64,000 nucleotides of DNA from Octopus vulgaris (lineage: Eukaryota), in the NCBI GenBank assembly GCA_951406725.2, contig OX597814.1, positions 88,164,001 through 88,228,000 on the forward strand, read 5' to 3'. A program made the position numbers and the translations under genes. Within the stretch, counting starts at the first letter, position 1, and every line of letters begins with the position of its first letter. Below the pieces are notes generated by a model. The model ran no database searches. It saw nothing but the letters and a program-made list of their open reading frames with translations, and had not been told where the DNA came from. Of this stretch, positions 4,868 to 61,080 are shown piece after piece.

Positions 4868-5369
4868 TGTATGTATGTATGTATGTATGTATGATGTATG
4901 TATGTATCTAGTATATATGTATGCAGTATGTGTACGTGCGTGTGTATATATCCCGTTTCATTCACAAGGGGTGGATCGACCCAAGGTCACAGAAAGTAAC
5001 ATTTGCTCAAGATGCCACGCAGCTGGATCGAATCCTGGACCTCGTGGTTGTGAAGTAAACTCCTTAACATACTCAGTTCCGATATGTTTTCGCCTACATG
5101 TAATTATGCATATGAATGTGCGTATGTGCGAGTATGTTCGTGTATATGTGTGTATGCCTTTATTTATGTGTACCTATCTAACTTGTTGTGTTGCATCCTT
5201 TTACATCAAGAATTATGAAGCAGCCCTTTGTTATACAGGTAGATATCAAATAAGTATCATACTAAAATAAATATATATGATTAAGCAAAACACTGCATGT
5301 CGATGCTCCAGTAAGGCAAGCAGTTTAATGACTGAAGTCATGAGAAAAATAAGATAATACATTCATTAT

Positions 5370-5980
5370 TGGCTTCAAATTTTGGCTTAAGGCCAGCAAG
5401 TTCGGAGGATGGGATAAGTCGATTACATCGACCCCAGTTCTCAACTAGTACTTATTTTATCGATCCAGAAAGGATGAAAGGTAAAGTCGACTCGGCGGCA
5501 TTTGAACTTGGAACGTAAAGACGGACGAAATGCTGCAAGGCGTGTTAAAAATTATGTCAGCTTTAATTAAAGTGTTACATCGAATGTAGTATTCAAGGCG
5601 GCGAGCTGGCAGAAACGTTAGCATGCCGGGCGAAATGCTTAGCAGTATTTCGTCTGCCGCTACGTTCTGAGTTCAAATTCCGCTGAAGTCGACTTTGCCT
5701 TTCATCCTTTCGGGGCCGATTAAATAAGTACCAGTTACGCACTGGGGTCGATATAATCGACTTAATCCGTTTGTCCTCTCTGTGTTTAGCCCCTTGTGGG
5801 TAGTAAAGAAATAGGTACTTCCTCCGTCTTTTCGTTCTAATTTCAAACGCTGCCGGGGTCGACTTTGCCTTTCATTATTTCGGGGTCAGTAAAATAAGTA
5901 CCAGTTGAGAACTGGGGCCAATGCAATCGGCTTACCCCTCCCGCTTAATTGCTGGCCTTGTACCAAAATTTGAAGCAATT
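5370..5980. mobile_element. Cluster of family A SINEs (one minus copy, two nested plus copies)
   Basis: GGCGGCGAGCTGGCAGAAACGTTAGC head at 5597; repeated GCCTTTCATCCTTTCGGGG..AAATAAGTACCAG core. Confidence 0.8.
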
Positions 5981-6786
5981 ATTGCACTTTAATATGCGAA
6001 ATATAATCCTCTGAAAAATAACCTACATTTCTTAATATAATGTGTAATACTGGTGTCTTTTATGGAAATTTTGGAATTAAATACACTCCACTATCGAGAT
6101 AGGGGAGTGGAATGCGTTTCTTCTCTCAGTGTCTCTTAAATATCATTGGAAGAGATACGAATGTTTGCAAGTACAGAAAGTCAGCTACAGATACATCTGG
6201 TAGCTATTTCTCTCCACCCATAACTCCTAAATAATTACAAATAAGGCGGAGCTTTAAGAAAAGAAGACTAAAAGAAACTCCAGTCATATATAACATATCT
6301 TTACATCAAATTTATGGAAGACACTAATATATCATGGCAACCGTTGAAAATTCGGTGAATAAGAAACATTCTAGAAATAGAGTCGAAACAGAATGATGAT
6401 AGCTAGGATAATTTCTTGGATAAAGGAAAATTGAGAGCCAGCATAAACTTAGTGTAAAAAAAATATTCAGTTAAAGCACATTGTTTTCCGTTTGATCTTA
6501 CACACATAAATACATTCGTTATTAACGATACATAGCGCATGTAGGTGTGAAAGAAAAAAATTAATCACACAGTTACATGTGTGAGTATGTGTGTTCGTGT
6601 GTGTGTATTAGCGTCTGTTTGTGATATTTGTGTGTATGCATTGGAGCATTGAGTTAGCTAACATTTGGAGTAATTCTGATTCCTTATACATTGACCTCAA
6701 ATTCAAGGGATATGGAGATGATTTTGTAGCATAATATATGAGCACTTCAGTTGGAAAAATAATGAAAAATAGATAACACACACACG

Positions 6787-21590: not shown

Positions 21591-21636
<46 letters not shown>

Positions 21637-21639
<3 letters not shown>

Positions 21640-21934
21640 TAACATATAATTGCCAACCAAGTGTAGCGTCCTGTACGGAACAGTGCTACTGACGTGTATT
21701 GCCTCAAGAAGACATCTCTTCCGGCTGGCTAACGACACACATTCTGTGATCCGATTAGTATTTGCGAGGGGACGTCATCGCTCTCATCCCTGGCCTTACG
21801 TGATACACACGGACTCGAGTTTCTGAGTAGTTATCCATCCTCAGCGTATGTTAATCACCAGCTAGTGATGAAAACTCACTCCACTCGCAAAATTCTATAG
21901 GACGCCACACTTGGTTGGCAATTATATATTACGA
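21637..21934. mobile_element. Short element with about 45 bp terminal inverted repeats next to a (TA)n tract
   Basis: TCGTAACATATAATTGCCAACCAAGTGTAGCGTCCT / AGGACGCCACACTTGGTTGGCAATTATATATTACGA. Confidence 0.7.
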
Positions 21935-22065
21935 TTCCGTATTGCTACTGTTTACATCTCGCCCAGAGATTTAGTATAGCCTATATATATATACATACGT
22001 ATATATATGTATAAATACGTATGTGTATATATATATATATATATACCTACATATATATATATATG

Positions 22066-22127: not shown

Positions 22128-22640
22128 AGAATAAACTATCCTTATATTGCAGAAAAAATCTTTACCGGTCAGACTCGAACTCACATCCCTGTGATTACGC
22201 GCCAAGTGCATTACCTCTAAGCTAAACTTCCCAGTAACGAATTATTCTGCAATTTTAGGGTTTATAAATCTAGCTTTATAAGACGCTAACGTTAAATTCA
22301 ACTTACGATGAAAGTAAACAAAGAAAATTTGCTTTAGAACTTGAATTTAACGCTAGCATTTTATACAGATAGATTTATAAATCCTAAAATTGCAGAGCAA
22401 TTCGTTACTGGACAATTTAGCTTAAAGGTGAAGCACCTGACGCGTAATGGCAGGAATGTGAGTTCGAGTCTCATGGCTGGCCAGTAACATTTTATTCTGA
22501 AATATATGGATAGTTTATCCTGTTCATGCTATTGTATTAGAATTTTCATGCTTTTGAGGATAAACTATTTGTGTATCTTTCAATACATCTCAACGCTTCT
22601 AAAGCAAACTTTGTTTGCTTTCATCGTAAGTTGAATACAT
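22127..22640. mobile_element. Palindromic element carrying a tRNA-like head in each arm
   Basis: Arms about 22127-22300 and 22338-22521 are inverted copies; the right arm has A box TAGCTTAAAGG, B box GTTCGAGTC and a TTTTT run; the spacer is repeated inverted at 22600-22637; flanked by (TA)n. Confidence 0.7.
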
Positions 22641-28210: not shown

Positions 28211-28493
28211 CATATAAATACATATTTAAATAAAAACATTTTTAAAACATAGAAATATTAATATTTCTAAGTCTCTCTAAAGGAGACTCCGGCAGCGGTA
28301 CTGGATATTAATAGTTATCGCCAAGCTAATATGTCAGTCCAGAACTATAGGACGAATGCTGCCGTTGATTAGCTCCAAGAGGCCATCGCCTCTAGCTAGC
28401 TATGTGACACACGAACCTGTGTCCTTTATAACCTTCGAACATGGGATGACAGTCGCTTTCCCTTGCTGGTCAGGCAAAACAAAAATAAAAATA

Positions 28494-28755
28494 AAAATTA
28501 TTAATTGTATAGAAAAAATCTTTGAAAAAAATTGATTGTCATGAACTTTTTAGAAGGATATTTTTGTATAGTGTTCGAGGGCTTTCCTTGTTAAGTCTTT
28601 CACACACGCACCATGGGGTAATCCGTATGATGGTTACCCCATAACACGGGTGCTTGAAAAGCATAACAACAAAAGCGCTTATACACTATACGAAAACTTC
28701 CTTTCAAAAGATTTCTGGCCTATTTTTTAGATTGCCTTATATAATTAATAATTTT
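28494..28755. mobile_element. Degenerate palindromic element related to 35891-36374
   Basis: AAAATTATTAATTGTATA / TATATAATTAATAATTTT ends, central ATGGGGTAA..TTACCCCAT hairpin, shared AAGGA.ATTT(T)TGTATAGTGTT..TTTCCTTGTT motif. Confidence 0.6.
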
Positions 28756-29200
28756 ATTTAAGAAACTATTCCTTGAAATATTTTGAGTGCATCAAGTGTC
28801 ATTTAGAAAAACACGAAATATAACTCTGTGTGTGTGAGTGTGTGTGTGTGTAAGTATATATCTGCCTATCTATCTGTCTGTCTCTCTACCTAACTACCTA
28901 TTTACCTGTTTAGCTATTTATCTTTCTATCTTCCAATCTACTTATCTACCTGTCTATCTATCTGTTTGAGTATGTGTGTATTTCACCACACACACACACA
29001 CGCGCGCACATACACACACACACACACACACGCGCGCGCGTGAAATATAATCATGTATAATTCTTTTAGCAATTTTGAACTCGCGAATCTACAACAACCA
29101 ACAAGCTATTGGCTCATGGAATTCATTCGCTTCAGCGCTACACATTCAAAGAAGCTGTGATGGAATCTAGTCATTTATGTCTATTGCTAGTAAGCCGGAA

Positions 29201-31566: not shown

Positions 31567-32861
31567 TACGAGGGACGTTCAATAAGTAATGTCTCTGACC
31601 CACTTGCAGTTGTTTGATCTAGCTGAAATTTTGCATGTGCAATTATTTATATCTCTATAGAGTAAGTGGCAAATTACAGCTCTGAATTAATTGTGGTGTC
31701 TGATCTACAGGTGTTTGAACCGAGTCAAGTGTGAAATGGAGCCTGTTGAGTGTCGAGCAGTGATCCGGTTTTTGTATTTGAAAGGACGCACACCACGGGA
31801 GACATTTGATGAAATGAAAGTAACTTATGATGATGATGCCCCATCATATGACCTTATAAAACGCTGGCATCGTGAATTCAAACATGGTCGGAACTCTGTG
31901 GAAACAGCTCCCAGATCTGGTCGCCCCTTTCTGCCATTGATGAGGCATCTGTCCGTCAAGTTGAGGCTGCCATTTTCGAAGATCGACGCATAACTATTCG
32001 CCAAATAGCCTATGAGGTCAAGATTAGTACCGGGTCTGTGGAAACTATCATTCATGACCATTTGCATATGCAAAAGATGTCTGCCAGATGGATTCCCAGG
32101 TTGCTCACGCCTTTCCAGAAGCAAGAACGCGTCGAGTGCTCGAGGGTGAATTTGGAGATGTGCCAAGAAGATGAGTCAAAATTTTTCAAAAGACTGATTA
32201 CACAGGATGAAACCTGGGTCCATCACGATGATCCAGAGACCAAAGCCCAGTCAATGCAGTGGAAGCACCGTGACTCACCCCCTCCAAAGAAGGCAAGGGT
32301 GCAGCCCTCCGCTGGCAAGGTCATGCTCACAGTCTTCTGGGACCAGGACGGAGTAGTGATGACAGATTTTCTGGCAAAGGGTACCACAATTGCAGGAGCC
32401 TATTATGCTTCACTTTTGAGGAAATTAAGAGAAGCTATAAAAATCAAGAGGCGGGGCAAGATCAGCAAAGGCATCCTCCTCCTGCAGGACAACGCTCCGG
32501 TCCACAACTCGCTTGTCGCCAGATCAGAAGCACAGGCGTATGGCTATGAACTCCTCCCCATCCCCCCTACTCTCCTGACCTTGCACCCTCTGATTTTCAC
32601 CTCTTCCCAATCATGAAGTTGTTTTTGAAAGGAAAGCGTTTCCCAGATGATGCAGCCTTGATTTCTGAAGTCACGTTGAGGTTGGAGGACCAAGCTGGGT
32701 TCTTCTACAAAAACGGTCTCCAGAGCCGCATCAAACGATGGGAGAAATGCGTAACTCTGAGTGGTTCCTATGTTGAAAAAGACTAATAACTGTGCCAAGT
32801 TTCCTTGCTCTACTGCTATGGGAAGTGGGTCAGGGGCATTACTTATTGAACGCCCCTCGTA
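31567..32861 (+). mobile_element. Full-length mariner (DD34D) transposon
   Basis: About 40 bp TIRs TACGAGGGACGTTCAATAAGTAATGTCTCTGACCCACTT / AAGTGGGTCAGGGGCATTACTTATTGAACGCCCCTCGTA, TA ends, about 1.3 kb. Confidence 0.95.
31736..32786 (+). pseudogene. Mariner transposase with two frameshifts
   Basis: MEPVECRAVIRFLYLKG, WIPRLL, ITQDETWVHH, LLQDNAPVH, PYSPDLAPSDF, WEKCVTLSGSYVEKD*; frameshifts near 31930 and 32560. Confidence 0.9.
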
Positions 32862-35337: not shown

Positions 35338-35374
35338 TTGTAAATATAATATATGACAATTATTCGGTAGCTTT

Positions 35375-35435
35375 GATAAAACTCCGAGTTTCGAATGTCG
35401 GGGCGGAAACCCGCGCCGGCATCTCTTCAGTTATC
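35375..35435 (-). ncRNA. Type I hammerhead ribozyme (P1 left arm)
   Basis: Reverse complement GATAA-CTGAAGA-GATGCCGG(CGCGGGTTTCCGCC)CCGACATTC-GAAA-CTCGGAG-TT-TTATC; stem I GATAA/TTATC, stem III ACT/AGT, GUU cleavage triplet. Confidence 0.7.
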
Positions 35436-35767
35436 GGGCCATCGAAAAAAATGCTACGAAAATGACCGTTAAAACAAAGGGAAATTACTGTGTGATTGAC
35501 CGTTATTAAGACAAAAGAGTTATTAGAATAACCGCTAAGTAAGGGTAGGGAGTAAAGGTAAGGCAATAAAAATGTTCATAGTAGTCGCGTATGCGCGCAT
35601 ATCCGTGGTCATTCTAATACCTCTTTTGTTTTAATAACGGTCAATCACACAGTAATTTCCCTTTGTTTTAACGGTCACTTTCATAACATATTTTTCGATG
35701 GCCCGATAACTGAATAGATGAATAGATGCCGGCGTGGGTTTCCACCCCGACATCCGAAAGTCCGAGT

Positions 35768-35769
<2 letters not shown>
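35375..35769. mobile_element. Palindromic hammerhead-bearing element P1
   Basis: Arms about 35377-35535 and 35605-35769 are inverted copies with a spacer of about 70 bp; flanked by (TA)n and (CA)n. Confidence 0.8.
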
Positions 35770-35857
<88 letters not shown>

Positions 35858-35890
35858 AGGATGAAAAGGAACACACGAGTTGATATATAT

Positions 35891-36370
35891 GAAAAAATAA
35901 GTCAAAATAGAAAATGCTAAAATAATTTTATAAAGAACATTTCAGTACCGGTTTCGGTCATTTTGAGACCTTTTCAACTGTAACGATTAAATAATTAAAT
36001 TTAGAAAAATTAAAATAAATGTTTTTTTAAAGGAATATTTGTATAGTGTTCAAATATAAGTGGCATTTTCCTTGTTTATGCCTTGCTCTGTCTCTCTTGT
36101 TCACACTTGTTCGAGGTCGTTGATTCACAACGATTCACAACGACCTCGAACCCACAAGTGTGAACAAGAGAGACAGAGCAAGGCAGAAACAAGGAAAATG
36201 CCACTTATATTTGAACACTATACAAATATTCCTTTAAAAAAAACATTTCTTTTAATTTTTCTAAATTTAATTATTTAATCGTTACAGTTGAAAAGGTCTC
36301 AAAATGACTGAAACCGGTACTGAAATGTTCTTTATAAAATTATTTTAGCATTTCCTATTTTGACTTATTT

Positions 36371-36374
<4 letters not shown>
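35891..36374. mobile_element. Near-perfect palindromic element P2 (about 235 bp arms, about 15 nt loop)
   Basis: GAAAAAATAAGTCAAAATAG... / ...CTATTTTGACTTATTTTTTC; few mismatches; centre about 36132; flanked by TA repeats. Confidence 0.85.
36282..36325 (+). ncRNA. Minimal hammerhead ribozyme, U3-A8 core variant (mirror copy on minus strand at 35941-35983)
   Basis: CAG-TTGAAAA-GGTC-TCAAAAT-GAC(T/C)-GAAA-CCGG-TA-CTG; stem I CAG/CTG, stem II GGTC/GACC, palindromic stem III ACCGGT, GUA triplet. Confidence 0.6.
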
Positions 36375-36428
<54 letters not shown>

Positions 36429-36706: not shown

Positions 36707-36871
36707 TACGACAGGCTTCTTTCAGTTTCCGTCTACCAAATCCACTCACAAGGCATTGGTCGGCCCGGGGCTATAGCAGAAGACACTTGCCCAAGATACC
36801 ACGCAGTGGGACTGAACCCGGAACCATGTGGTTGGTTAGCAAGCTACTTACCACACAGCCACTCCTGCGCC
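36430..36871 (-). mobile_element. Family B SINE, full composite with internal microsatellite
   Basis: Minus-strand head GGCGCAGGAGTGGCTGTGTGGTAAG, TTGGGCAAGTGTCTT core, internal (TA)/(TG) tract, (GTAAAAGA)n tail. Confidence 0.85.
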
Positions 36872-36879
36872 TATATATA

Positions 36880-37090
36880 TATATTGTTAATCCAAACATG
36901 AACAAAAAGAAAACACAACGACGCGAGGACGTGGAATAAGTAGTGTTATTGGACGCTCAGTAAAGGAGAGAACGAAGGAGGATTTCACGTTTCGAGCGGA
37001 GCTCTTCATCAGAAATGTAGAGAAAGTCCAAAGAAGGGAAGATGGAGACAGAAAATCGCCAACAATACACACGCGGTCACCGCCCCCATA
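36880..37090 (-). mobile_element. Short hammerhead-bearing element in (TA)n (family shared with 44075-44310)
   Basis: GTTAATCCAAACA.GAA...ACGCGA.GACGTGGAA shared; minus-strand ATTT-CTGATGA-A-GAGC-TCC-GCTC-GAAA-CG-TG-AAAT at 36982-37016. Confidence 0.7.
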
Positions 37091-37104
37091 TATATATACA
37101 TATA

Positions 37105-37193
<89 letters not shown>

Positions 37194-37230
37194 GAATGGA
37201 GTTGAACGACGAATTAACAAAATTCCTTTA

Positions 37231-37313
37231 TTTTCGACATATGTTTCGAAGGCTGCATATTCCTAATTGCGAAGGAATAAGGAGTATATTATGCCGCTTT
37301 CTCATCAGGAAAA
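37231..37313 (-). ncRNA. Type I hammerhead ribozyme (P3 left arm, mirror copy)
   Basis: Reverse complement of the 37568-37650 motif with an intact core. Confidence 0.75.
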
Positions 37314-37450
37314 GCAAGGAACTTATGTCAACATCAAGATGCACAAAAAACTTTTAGATGACTGCTCAAACGGAGCCCATAGTGAAAATGAGTGTCGTTT
37401 GAACCCTTGAACCTTTAGAACCTTCTAGATTCTTCTACATCCAACCATTT

Positions 37451-37469
37451 TGACGTCACTCCTTATAAA
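37451..37469 (+). promoter_or_regulatory. CRE (TGACGTCA) plus TATAAA in the P3 spacer, putative Pol II promoter
   Basis: TGACGTCA at 37451-37458 and TATAAA at 37464-37469, just upstream of the right arm. Confidence 0.4.
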
Positions 37470-37567
37470 GGAATTTTTTAAAGAGATACTCATTTTCGCT
37501 ATGGGCTCCGTGTGAGCAGTCATCTAAAAGTTTTTTGTGCATCTTCATGTTGACATAAGTTCCTTGC

Positions 37568-37650
37568 TTTTCCTGATGAGAAAGCGGCATAATATACTCC
37601 TTATTCCTTCGCAATTAGGAATATACAGCCTTCGAAACATATGTCGAAAA
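37568..37650 (+). ncRNA. Type I hammerhead ribozyme (P3 right arm)
   Basis: TTTTC-CTGATGA(37573-79)-G AAAGCGGC...ACAGCCTT C-GAAA(37634-37)-CATAT-GTC(37643-45)-GAAAA; stem I extends as TTCCTT/AAGGAA beyond an internal loop; palindromic stem III ACATATGT. Confidence 0.8.
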
Positions 37651-37830
37651 TAAAGGAATTTTGTTAATTCGTCGTTCAACTCCATTCTTTCATATATTTA
37701 TATTTAAAAAAAAACATACAAATTTCCACACGAAAGCACGTAACTTCAAACGTGTCTTCTTTGATGTGAATTTGCTACCCAGGTATCGATTAACCGAATT
37801 ATCCATAACAAGATAATTCATTCAACTACT

Positions 37831-38340
<510 letters not shown>

Positions 38341-55999: not shown

Positions 56000-56902
56000 C
56001 ATGCATACACACACACACACATATAGATAGATAGATATTATATATCTGTATGTGTGAGTGTATGTGTGTGTGTGCGAGGGGGAAAGATATATATATAGAG
56101 AGAGAGAGAGAAAGAAAGATAGATGTATTTGCAATTCATTCATGCATATCTAGATAAGCAAGAAATAAATTTTCATTATCTTTCTGTATCACTTTTCCTT
56201 TCACAAGACATTATAAAGCGTTCATTTTTCATTTCTGTTTCTCTCGACAGTATTACCTGATATCACTGAGATTCCTCGAGAGTTTTGCATGTTACTCGAT
56301 CATCTGTTATCATTGATTGAACGGTGTCTCTTCCAGTGATACCTGAGTCAGACAGCTCTCACAATCTAGCTCAGGTAATATCTATTAAATATTTTCGTTT
56401 CATCGTGGTAATTCCACTTACAGTTTATTAATTTCGAGAAACTTATTTTCTTTCTTCTCTTCCTCATAGAATAGCTATAAGGATTATTTCGCAACCTACT
56501 CTTTGCTCCTGCTTTTTAAGTTTACCAAAGGATATCTAACTCATTTCTATTGCACAAGCTCTCACACCCACACATTCCGCCTTTCGCTTCACTGCACAGG
56601 AGACCGACTCAATTCAGAGTCTCTCGACCAGCTACAAATTGCAGCCAAATTTTCCTGAAATTACACACTATTATCTTTATAATGAACAAAATAATAATTT
56701 AATAAAATTTGCATACTTATTATTTTCTTCATTATTAGACACAAGCACAGCTGGGCGGTGAAGAAGCTCACTTTGCAACCACATAATTTTGGGTTCAGTT
56801 CTACTGTCCGGTAACTTGGGAAAGTGTCTTCTAGTATTCCCCTGGGACGACCAATGCTTTGTGAGTGAGGTTTGGTAGATAGAAACTGTGTGGAAGTCTG
56901 TC

Positions 56903-56956
<54 letters not shown>

Positions 56957-57112
56957 GACGGTCTTGATTCACTTTCAGTTTACCAAATCCACGGGTATTG
57001 GTCAGCCCCGTGGCTGTATTAGAAGACACTTGCCCAGAATGCCACGCAGTAGGACTGAACCCGGAACCATGTGGTTGGGAAGCAAGCTCCTTACCACACA
57101 GCCATGCCTGTG

Positions 57113-57658
<546 letters not shown>

Positions 57659-57669
57659 CATACGCACAC

Positions 57670-58630
57670 GACTTTGGCATGTAACGACTTTGGCTTAGCT
57701 ATCAGCCTTAAGAAGACCAACATCATGGGCCAGGCTACATCGGACATCCCAAACATACTAATTGGAGACCACAGATTACAAGAGGTGGAGAAGTTTACCT
57801 ATCTGGGCTCTACCGTCACCTACAACCTATCCCTTGATGCTGAGCTCAATATACGCATTGGCAAGGCAGCTGCTGCGATGGCCCAACTCTCCAAACGGGC
57901 TTGGGACAACAATAAGCTGACCAAGACCACAAAAATGAAGATCTACCAGGCATGTGTACTCAGCACTCTACTGTATGGAAGCGAGACCTGGACGCTATAC
58001 ACACGCCAAGAGAGTCGCCTAAACATCTTTCACCTGCGCTGCCTCCGAAAAATCCTCCACATCAAATGGCAGAATCATATCCCCAACAAAGATGTCCTCA
58101 GGCAAGCAGGAATACCAAGCATGTTTGCACTCCTCACACAAAGACGTATGAGATGGCTTGGGCATGTTAGCCGTATGAAAGATGGCAGAATCCCCAAGGA
58201 CATACTCTACGGAGAGCTTGCTAGGGGTACTAGGTCTGTGGGTAGACCGATCTTACGTTACAAGGATGTCTGCAAAAGGGATACGAAGGCCTGCAACATC
58301 AACATTAGCGGTTGGGAGGCAGTCGCCGGCAACCGTGGAGAATGGCGACGTACAGTAAAAGAGGGTATACAGAGGAGTGACAGAAAGAGAGAGGAGAAAT
58401 GGAAAGAAAGGAAGAGACATAAACAAGAGACCATGGCACTACAACCAGCCAGGAACAGTCTTCGCTACATTTGCAGTACCTGCCAGAGGGAGTGTTTGTC
58501 CAGGATAGGACTACACAGCCACAGCAAGAAATGTAACAGGAAATAAAATATAACAGCCGGACTAGACCTAGAAAAAAAAAAAAAAAAAAAATGCGCAACT
58601 GTCTCCCGAGACAGAAAGGATGCCAAACAA
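57670..58630 (+). mobile_element. 5'-truncated RTE (BovB-like) LINE with an uninterrupted ORF remnant
   Basis: About 290 codons without a stop to 58546: [56 protein letters not shown]-terminal CSTCQRECLSRIGLHSH; 3' UTR hairpin CTGTCTC-CC-GAGACAG. Confidence 0.9.
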
Positions 58631-59856: not shown

Positions 59857-61080
59857 TACTAGAGTATTAAAGATTTCCCCTGATCAACTTCCCAAGGACT
59901 GCGATAAACGAAACTCGATATAATTATTAGTCCTTCTCTACATAGCCACCACCAACGGCGACACACTTCTCCCATCGCTTTATGCAGTTGTGAAGACCTC
60001 GTCCATAGAAGTCGGTGGCTTGCGCCTGGAGCCAATACTTTATCTCGAAAATAAGTTCATCATCATCTGAAAAGTGCTTTCCCTTCAAAAGAGTCTTCGT
60101 GGTTGGAAAGAGGCGGAAGTCAGATGGTGCGAAGTCGAGAGAGTAAGAGGGATGAGTAAGGATTTCATAGCAACAGAAATGTGCTTTCATCTGGGCAACG
60201 TGCACATTGTGAAGTGTGTTATCTTGGAGGAGGCGGATTCCTTTGGTCAGCATGCCACGCCTCTCTGCTTTGATGGTGTCCCGCAATTTTGACTGCAGAG
60301 AAGCATAATATGCCCCGTTATTTGTGATGCTCTTTGCCATCATCACTACTTAGCGCTGGTCCCAAAAGACTGTGTTGCCTGCTGAGGGTTAGACACGAGC
60401 CTTCTTTGGAGGTGGTGAGTTATCATGCTTTCATTGCTTCGACTGGACTTTAGTCTCAGGATCATAGTGATGGACTCATGTCTCATCATGTGTAATAAGT
60501 CTACCGAAAAAGTCATCGTTTTCTTGGCACATTGCCAAAAGAGCCTGGGAGCAAATGACTCGTTCCTGCTTCTGTAAAGGTGTGAGCATCTAGGGAATCC
60601 ATCGTGCAGACAACTTCCGCATGTGCAAATAGTGGTGAATAATTTTTTCCACGGACCCAGCAATTATCTTCATTTGTTGGGCTAGTTGCTGAATAGTTAT
60701 GCGGCGATCTTGGTGGAATGTGGTCGTGAGGAATAGGAGCAGTTTCCACCGATGTCCGACACATTTGAACTGGAGATGCCAGTGCTTGACTACGTTGTAT
60801 GATGGTGCATCGTCACTATAAACTTATTTCATCTCATCGAAAGCCTGTTTTGGTGTACGACCTTTTAAGTATAAGAACCTGATCACTGATCTGCATTCAA
60901 CTGCCTCCTTTAGAACACCTTAATCCACTTCAGCAGCCATAAAGGACAAACGAATGCTAGTGGAAAGCTGCAATTTACAATGTGACATGTAGAGACATGT
61001 ATGATTATACCTGTCCAACTTCGGTTTCCTGCAATAACCGGAAGTGGGCCAGGGGAAATATGTAATGAACACCCCTCGTA
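59857..61080 (-). mobile_element. Decayed full-length mariner related to 31567-32861
   Basis: TIR TACGAGGGGTGTTCATTACATATTTCCCCTGGCCCACTTCC; EAVECRSVIRFLYLKGRTP, LLQDN, SYSLDFAPSDF, WEKCVAVGGGYVEKD. Confidence 0.85.

Follow-up and report, generated by a model that had tools for sequence, protein, structure and literature searches.

A palindromic hammerhead locus in Octopus vulgaris as a probable insertion stub of a Hydra-like Penelope element

The inverted ends of Penelope-like elements, their choice of microsatellites and the use made of their hammerheads are standing questions in PMC8557442 and PMC11167929. As that account of the Hydra clade has it (PMC8557442), a single ORF encodes a reverse transcriptase (RT) and then a GIY-YIG endonuclease, with a DKT motif and with CxxC and CxH around a conserved E and N, and the octopus family described here shares all of these features. 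Also shared are the (TA)n target, a hammerhead after the ORF with a self-complementary stem III, and an inverted 5' copy, through which, in the PMC8557442 supplement, Penelope-13_HM carries a hammerhead on both strands. The octopus family is unlike the members described there in that the CxCX5C linker is missing and is N-rich instead, RWK is replaced by RWL, the unit is ~3.5 kb rather than under 3 kb, stem II plus loop takes up 54 nt as against ~10-25 nt in the listed Hydra motifs, and the tail is 141 bp rather than 30-40 (PMC8557442). The green anole Poseidon element PAc belongs to another clade and its hammerhead overlaps the start codon, but it too has two RT start sites bounding a tail, an AT-rich target and extension of both strands, observed in vitro for PAc and deduced from sequence here (PMC11167929). 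A further likeness is that the PAc hammerhead is dispensable for insertion, with no RNA ends reported at the cut site (PMC11167929). The Penelope elements of Adineta vaga have an inverted pseudo-LTR, a tail on one end and an N-rich insert between RT and endonuclease, as here, but are present in few copies, with a 31-bp tail and palindromes at the junction (PMC3846280).

The minimal hammerheads of metazoan Penelope elements are likewise of type I with a 5-bp stem I, an enlarged stem II and a palindromic stem III; as described in PMC4209133, monomers were inactive and dimers weak in vitro, which resembles the behaviour predicted below, and opposite-strand pairs 100-700 bp apart were already noted there in 2014. 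The octopus motif has a far longer stem II, a stem I that reaches much further, and its core is not followed by an extra base. Animal non-LTR retrozymes also carry a type I hammerhead with a weak stem III that acts as a dimer, but they are short non-coding tandem repeats, whereas the sequence here is the end of an autonomous element (PMC7229834; bioRxiv 10.64898/2026.07.22.740005). The canonical type I hammerhead, with stems of 6 and 4 bp and a conserved contact between loops I and II, is not matched by a motif whose stem II is 54 nt long.

The window analysed is a stretch of 64,000 nucleotides (contig OX597814.1, positions 88,164,001 to 88,228,000), and the insertion occupies 37190-37833 within it. 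Its parts are as follows.

37088..37189, no strand: left (TA)n tract, the likely target.
37190..37396, minus strand: inverted, 5'-truncated copy of the element's 3' end (pseudo-LTR), which stops at the short end and has no tail.
37231..37313, minus strand: type I hammerhead of the inverted copy, core from 37308, predicted cut after C 37236; its stem II has the base usual in the family.
37395..37396: inversion junction, 2 bases (TC) common to both copies.
37395..37833, plus strand: sense 5'-truncated copy, with 3' UTR, hammerhead, short end at 37692 and tail.
37397..37484, plus strand: unpaired centre of the palindrome, 88 bp of ordinary element sequence in the longer copy only.
37552..37665, plus strand: type I hammerhead with extended stem I; a private change at 37625 weakens stem II.
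37693..37833, plus strand: 141-bp tail, which in full-length copies leads into the ORF at its 5' end.
37796-37803 with 37812-37819, plus strand: hairpin just before the tail end.
37834..37925, no strand: right (TA)n tract, the likely target.

A sequence-only reading had described a 510-bp palindrome at this position. The mirrored arms are real, but each is only ~208 bp long (37190-37396 and 37485-37692), they stand around the 88-bp unpaired centre, and the insertion extends to the right as far as 37833. The same reading had the arms differing at a handful of positions, and five were counted, a divergence of 1.3%. The sense copy starts ~400 bp past the ORF stop and the locus holds no coding sequence. 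A stand-alone palindrome was rejected in favour of one Penelope-like insertion, a sense 3' stub head to head with a shorter inverted stub inside (TA)n. We put the probability at roughly 85% that the locus is a single insertion of this kind, two truncated 3'-end copies in a TA repeat whose hammerheads are weak passengers. The locus is then an ordinary one, a real hammerhead motif in a common insertion stub, and the mirror copy is a known by-product of insertion.

That the family is a Penelope-like element with pseudo-LTRs can be seen directly in its other copies. The right arm found 1585 candidate relatives in the 2.8-Gb genome, at 96-100% identity in the 45 matches listed, and these run through the supposed spacer and on for 141 bp beyond the arm, with two fixed 3' ends followed by (TA)n. 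Their 5' ends are scattered, i.e. truncation is variable, and the junctions differ at each locus. Intact cores with both halves exact number at least 405 in the genome and none in a reversed control, and a second subfamily, ~72-76% identical, gave 266 matches to its own pattern. The 3'-end sequence also precedes the ORF in L044, L045, L047 and L054, as a pseudo-LTR in which the hammerhead motif is located. The unit measures ~3.55 kb (1224 + 2328).

The ORF upstream in longer copies has the RT motifs RIRW, DKT and YRDD and then a C-terminal GIY-YIG domain, RT and endonuclease forming a single frame in L050 (741 aa), L047 and L037. A Pfam match to GIY-YIG had an E of 3e-4, falling just short of the Pfam cut-off, and the long frames gave no Pfam match at an E of 0.05; homologues numbered 45, the best with an E of 7e-90. 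The change from DKG to DKT is seen as VQSDKT in L042, L045 and L047, and RIRWL aligned with the homologues' RMRWK, with K replaced by L. The endonuclease reads CGVCNSE...INT...CMH, that is, CxxC and CxH around E and N; it has no CCHH motif when set against the general layout of that motif. The CxCX5C linker was absent from every endonuclease frame listed (in ~22 distinct loci 100+ residues upstream were read), including L050 and L037, in which the whole stretch between RT and endonuclease was read. The linker is instead N-rich in both subfamilies, whereas 36 of the 45 homologues keep CxCX5C. Since DKT, the endonuclease cysteine pattern and (TA)n match the Hydra clade and the linker and the ~3.55-kb unit do not, the family is provisionally called Hydra-like and is not assigned to that clade, the motifs having been compared by eye and named members by the supplement text. 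Identity with Hydra-1_Obim was rejected, its hammerhead and protein being different.

The arrangement at this locus recurs throughout the family. Within 3 kb, the first 100 cores listed form 18 head-to-head pairs (36 cores), one same-strand pair and no tail-to-tail pair, as counted by eye. The 5' end is visible in 25 of 29 distinct best-match loci, and at 15 of the 25 an inverted piece lies alongside. One tailed end together with one short end was found in 17 of the 18 position-ordered pairs (binomial 7e-5), the exception being L102 (= L007), which has the tail at both ends. The same rule holds in 12 further best-match loci (L008 was not scorable), in L108, and in all nine of nine pairs in the second subfamily. 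In L029, L091 and L092 it is the shorter copy that carries the tail and the longer one that lacks it, while in L010, L026 and L078 the inverted piece consists of tail only. Each of the two ends coincides with a TA-rich tract of the element. Paired "hairpin boxes", one at either end, were considered and not adopted, the tail-end hairpin occurring in both subfamilies and the short-end one in the window's only (L038 and L064 were left out of this comparison). A one-sided tail is already known; neither the family nor the strict one-tail rule was found in print, in the literature outside Repbase, the PMC13282606 repeat library and most subscription papers.

It is likely that both nicked target strands primed reverse transcription. 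The RT-endonuclease of the element, probably as a dimer, would nick both strands of (TA)n, one DNA end priming where the RNA tail ends and the other 141 nt upstream of that, at the short end; the two priming sites are TA-rich element tracts, so short pairing with the nicked (TA)n may be inferred. Both cDNAs would end early (at ~439 and 207 nt) and be joined through the 2-base microhomology. Across the family, the hammerhead might act as a dimer on tandem transcripts to cut out unit-length RNA, and insertion would use RNA that is uncut or rejoined at the hammerhead site. The overlapping copies require the same stretch of RNA to have been copied twice, for which two RNAs, two pseudo-LTRs or strand displacement are alike possible. 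L102, tailed at both ends, counts against this explanation. For PAc, RT was found to start at sites without homology to the cut DNA (PMC11167929), which differs from the TA microhomology suggested here by the two TA-rich ends.

An alternative is that one cDNA or antisense RNA folds on itself and is copied back as the inverted arm, such fold-back or self-priming having been proposed for the rotifer elements (PMC3846280). At this locus the longer copy does have the tail and contains the short copy, and the arms are 1.3% apart as against 4.8% to other loci, both of which would be expected of a fold-back. At six or more loci, however, the inverted or shorter piece includes tail sequence that is lacking in the other copy, and the junction here shows no palindrome, just the two shared bases. 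The presence of the tail on either the longer or the shorter copy, and of inverted pieces made of tail only, argues for two separate primings, and we consider fold-back unlikely.

Returning to the insertion with two primed strands, a more specific version may be offered tentatively, as a possibility that we hold to be somewhat less probable than its negation. A lineage without the linker might find (TA)n by base pairing, each nicked strand annealing at one of the RNA sites that bound the tail and a dimeric enzyme priming once at each. Were this true, it would explain the near-strict rule of one tailed and one short end, and the family would amount to a deletion experiment done by nature on the proposal that the zinc linker directs Penelope-like elements to microsatellites. 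The hammerhead would then be a dimer-only, long-armed one, and decay of stem II in the youngest subfamily would not have stopped its spread. The missing linker despite TA targeting, the 54-nt stem II, the 141-bp tail and the end rule are in any case family features of modest interest, and a comparative set is at hand in the hundreds of recent insertions, which follow a fixed end rule, lack the linker and include subfamilies whose stem II is sound and others in which it is damaged.

The hammerhead motif itself can be read directly, and the canonical core reported earlier is intact on both strands. The type I elements CUGAnGA, GAA and UH are present with three stems. On the plus strand TTTTC (37568-37572) is followed by the core bases CTGATGA (37573-37579) and GAA (37634-37636); stem II spans 37580-37633 (54 nt), stem III is the palindromic ACATATGT at 37637-37644, C17 is at 37645, and GAAAA at 37646-37650 pairs with 37568-72 to form stem I, in which the distal TTCCTT/AAGGAA pairing is also present. 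The mirror core starts at 37308 on the minus strand with C17 at 37236, so that the predicted cuts after 37645 and at 37236 both fall where that reading had placed them. A hammerhead descriptor gave 3 matches in the 64-kb window and 1 in 40 Markov simulations (mean 0.025). Rfam listed no hammerhead family at E<=10 on 36860-37830 (19 rows), and none among the 150 listed of 210 rows over the whole window, probably because of the long stem II. In 20 natural copies of two subfamilies, 90.8% of cells were paired, as against 35-50% in slid controls, and compensatory changes (U-A to C-G in stem I, G-C to A-U in stem II) support the hammerhead fold, although they reflect one subfamily split and so few independent events; the count of pairs changed on both sides was not above shuffles (201/500). 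The self-complementary stem III had been said to allow a dimer, and this is borne out by the covariation and by the double hammerhead being the predicted minimum-energy fold in tandems of L052 and L066, as it is the predicted best fold for older copies. Sequence and predicted folding thus support a genuine hammerhead motif of type I, whose palindromic stem III would suit a dimer.

Activity at this particular locus is another matter. All folds are nearest-neighbour predictions that ignore tertiary contacts, Mg2+ and help from protein, and on these the cost of adopting the hammerhead is 8.1 kcal/mol for the plus arm, 4.8 for the minus arm and 2.3-2.4 for the best copies. The value of 8.1 compares with 3.8-7.7 kcal/mol (ensemble cost) in the remaining 19 of the 20 copies whose stem II begins at the same place, although some second-subfamily copies are equally poor folders, with costs of up to 12.2. 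For tandems the dimer gap is 0.0 kcal/mol in both L052 and L066, 3.6 in the minus arm and 12.2 in the plus arm. The plus arm ranks near the bottom on both measures, and the view of this locus as the best candidate for an active ribozyme is not supported; for bench work the copies to choose would be tandems of L052 or L066. In the window's subfamily stem II contains an A-C mismatch, which also strengthens a decoy hairpin over the core (-5.6 as against -2.8 kcal/mol), and to this the plus arm adds its change at 37625, absent from all 28 other copies (0/28). The palindrome is no help to dimerisation, as its two cores sit on opposite strands and thus cannot pair in cis; from whichever side it comes, read-through RNA first meets its complement and so would form one long hairpin, with predicted folds of -392 and -403 kcal/mol in which the core is fully paired. 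An RNA started inside the 88-bp centre escapes the long hairpin, yet its predicted fold is still not a hammerhead. The loop-loop contact that had been proposed is unsupported, as the internal loop of stem I differs between subfamilies. This locus is predicted to be a weak candidate for ribozyme activity, its hammerheads being passengers; the anole hammerhead is described as cleaving only with its protein (PMC11167929).

It has also to be asked whether the locus could be an active two-strand ribozyme cassette, specific to this place and kept or homogenised by selection. Both cores are intact, the minus arm folds at a lower cost than the other three window motifs tested and has a dimer gap of only 3.6 kcal/mol, and conversion between arms can occur in the family: in the duplicated locus L093/L094 (157.84 and 158.12 Mb on the window's contig) one substitution is mirrored in both arms in L094 only, which suggests arm-to-arm gene conversion elsewhere in the family. 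Set against this are the hundreds of equal or better copies, the private stem II damage in the plus arm, the read-through hairpin and the non-conserved stem I loop. Nor do the arms themselves bear out the description of the insertion as young or homogenised; their divergence is simply the mean of the 18 pairs, eight of which have none, against 4.8% between loci (612 comparisons), and the five differences are unshared, with no private change common to the two arms. A selected cassette is accordingly held to be very improbable.

The 5' ends of genomic copies gave no sign of cleavage. Copies starting exactly at the predicted cut number 19, or 16 without L118, L125 and L128, and control start positions gave 9 at -3, 10 at -6 and 36 at +2, about half of the last being indel or tandem variants as judged by eye. 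After correction for the probability of a difference at all three flanking bases (0.46 at the cut and 0.23, 0.38 and 0.46 at the controls, our own estimate), the counts become ~35-42 at the cut, 39 at -3, 26 at -6 and ~40 at +2, with no excess of 5' ends at the cut. A broader control, dominated by a subfamily with a 5-base duplication, was left out. That subfamily is large, making up most of 675 matches to judge by the first 100 listed, and has the duplication just after the cut and a larger stem I internal loop. Tiny palindromes at L115 and L123/L124 have both arms starting at precisely the predicted cut. The family is covered by contigs from runs presumed to be RNA, which carry no information on ends, strand or this particular locus.

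A non-autonomous retrozyme or a fixed, palindromic MITE-like element would account for the want of coding sequence at the locus, and retrozymes do carry type I hammerheads and have been linked to Penelope pseudo-LTRs; but this sequence also forms the 3' end of a 3.5-kb unit with an ORF, each locus has its own junction and no short tandem monomer was seen, so that this has very little to commend it. An assembly artefact from a fold-back read is extremely improbable: even though the junction is bridged by none of the contig pieces listed for four runs (a gap that proves nothing), the arms differ at five sites and terminate at two different family-specific ends, and the same architecture occurs at dozens of loci.

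Other parts of the window hold related structures. At 36886-37087 another hammerhead-bearing fragment adjoins the left (TA)n, and its minimal motif near 37010 (minus strand) has a G at the cut position and is thus likely inactive. An inverted pair of another family lies at 35355-35772, with an intact core on the minus strand at 35430 and a broken plus copy; this core has a long GC-rich stem II, an ACTC-G-GAGT stem III like published Hydra motifs and a predicted cost of 14 kcal/mol. A 500-bp palindrome in (TA)n and (CA)n at 35883-36382, with a degenerate hammerhead-like core, is likely another Penelope-like inverted insertion. Inverted ends at 21636-21936 surround an intact hammerhead core at 21844 (minus strand) with a palindromic ACTCGAGT stem III and a 7-bp stem I. 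No host exons were recognised by eye among the 55 window frames of 110+ aa. Frames at 31876-32616 and 59927-60349 resemble what we take to be mariner transposase remnants, and one at 57548-58546 is presumably the C-terminal part of a LINE RT. Further inverted structures between dispersed repeats lie at 22128-22640, 5364-5984, 28489-28759 and 56736-57116.
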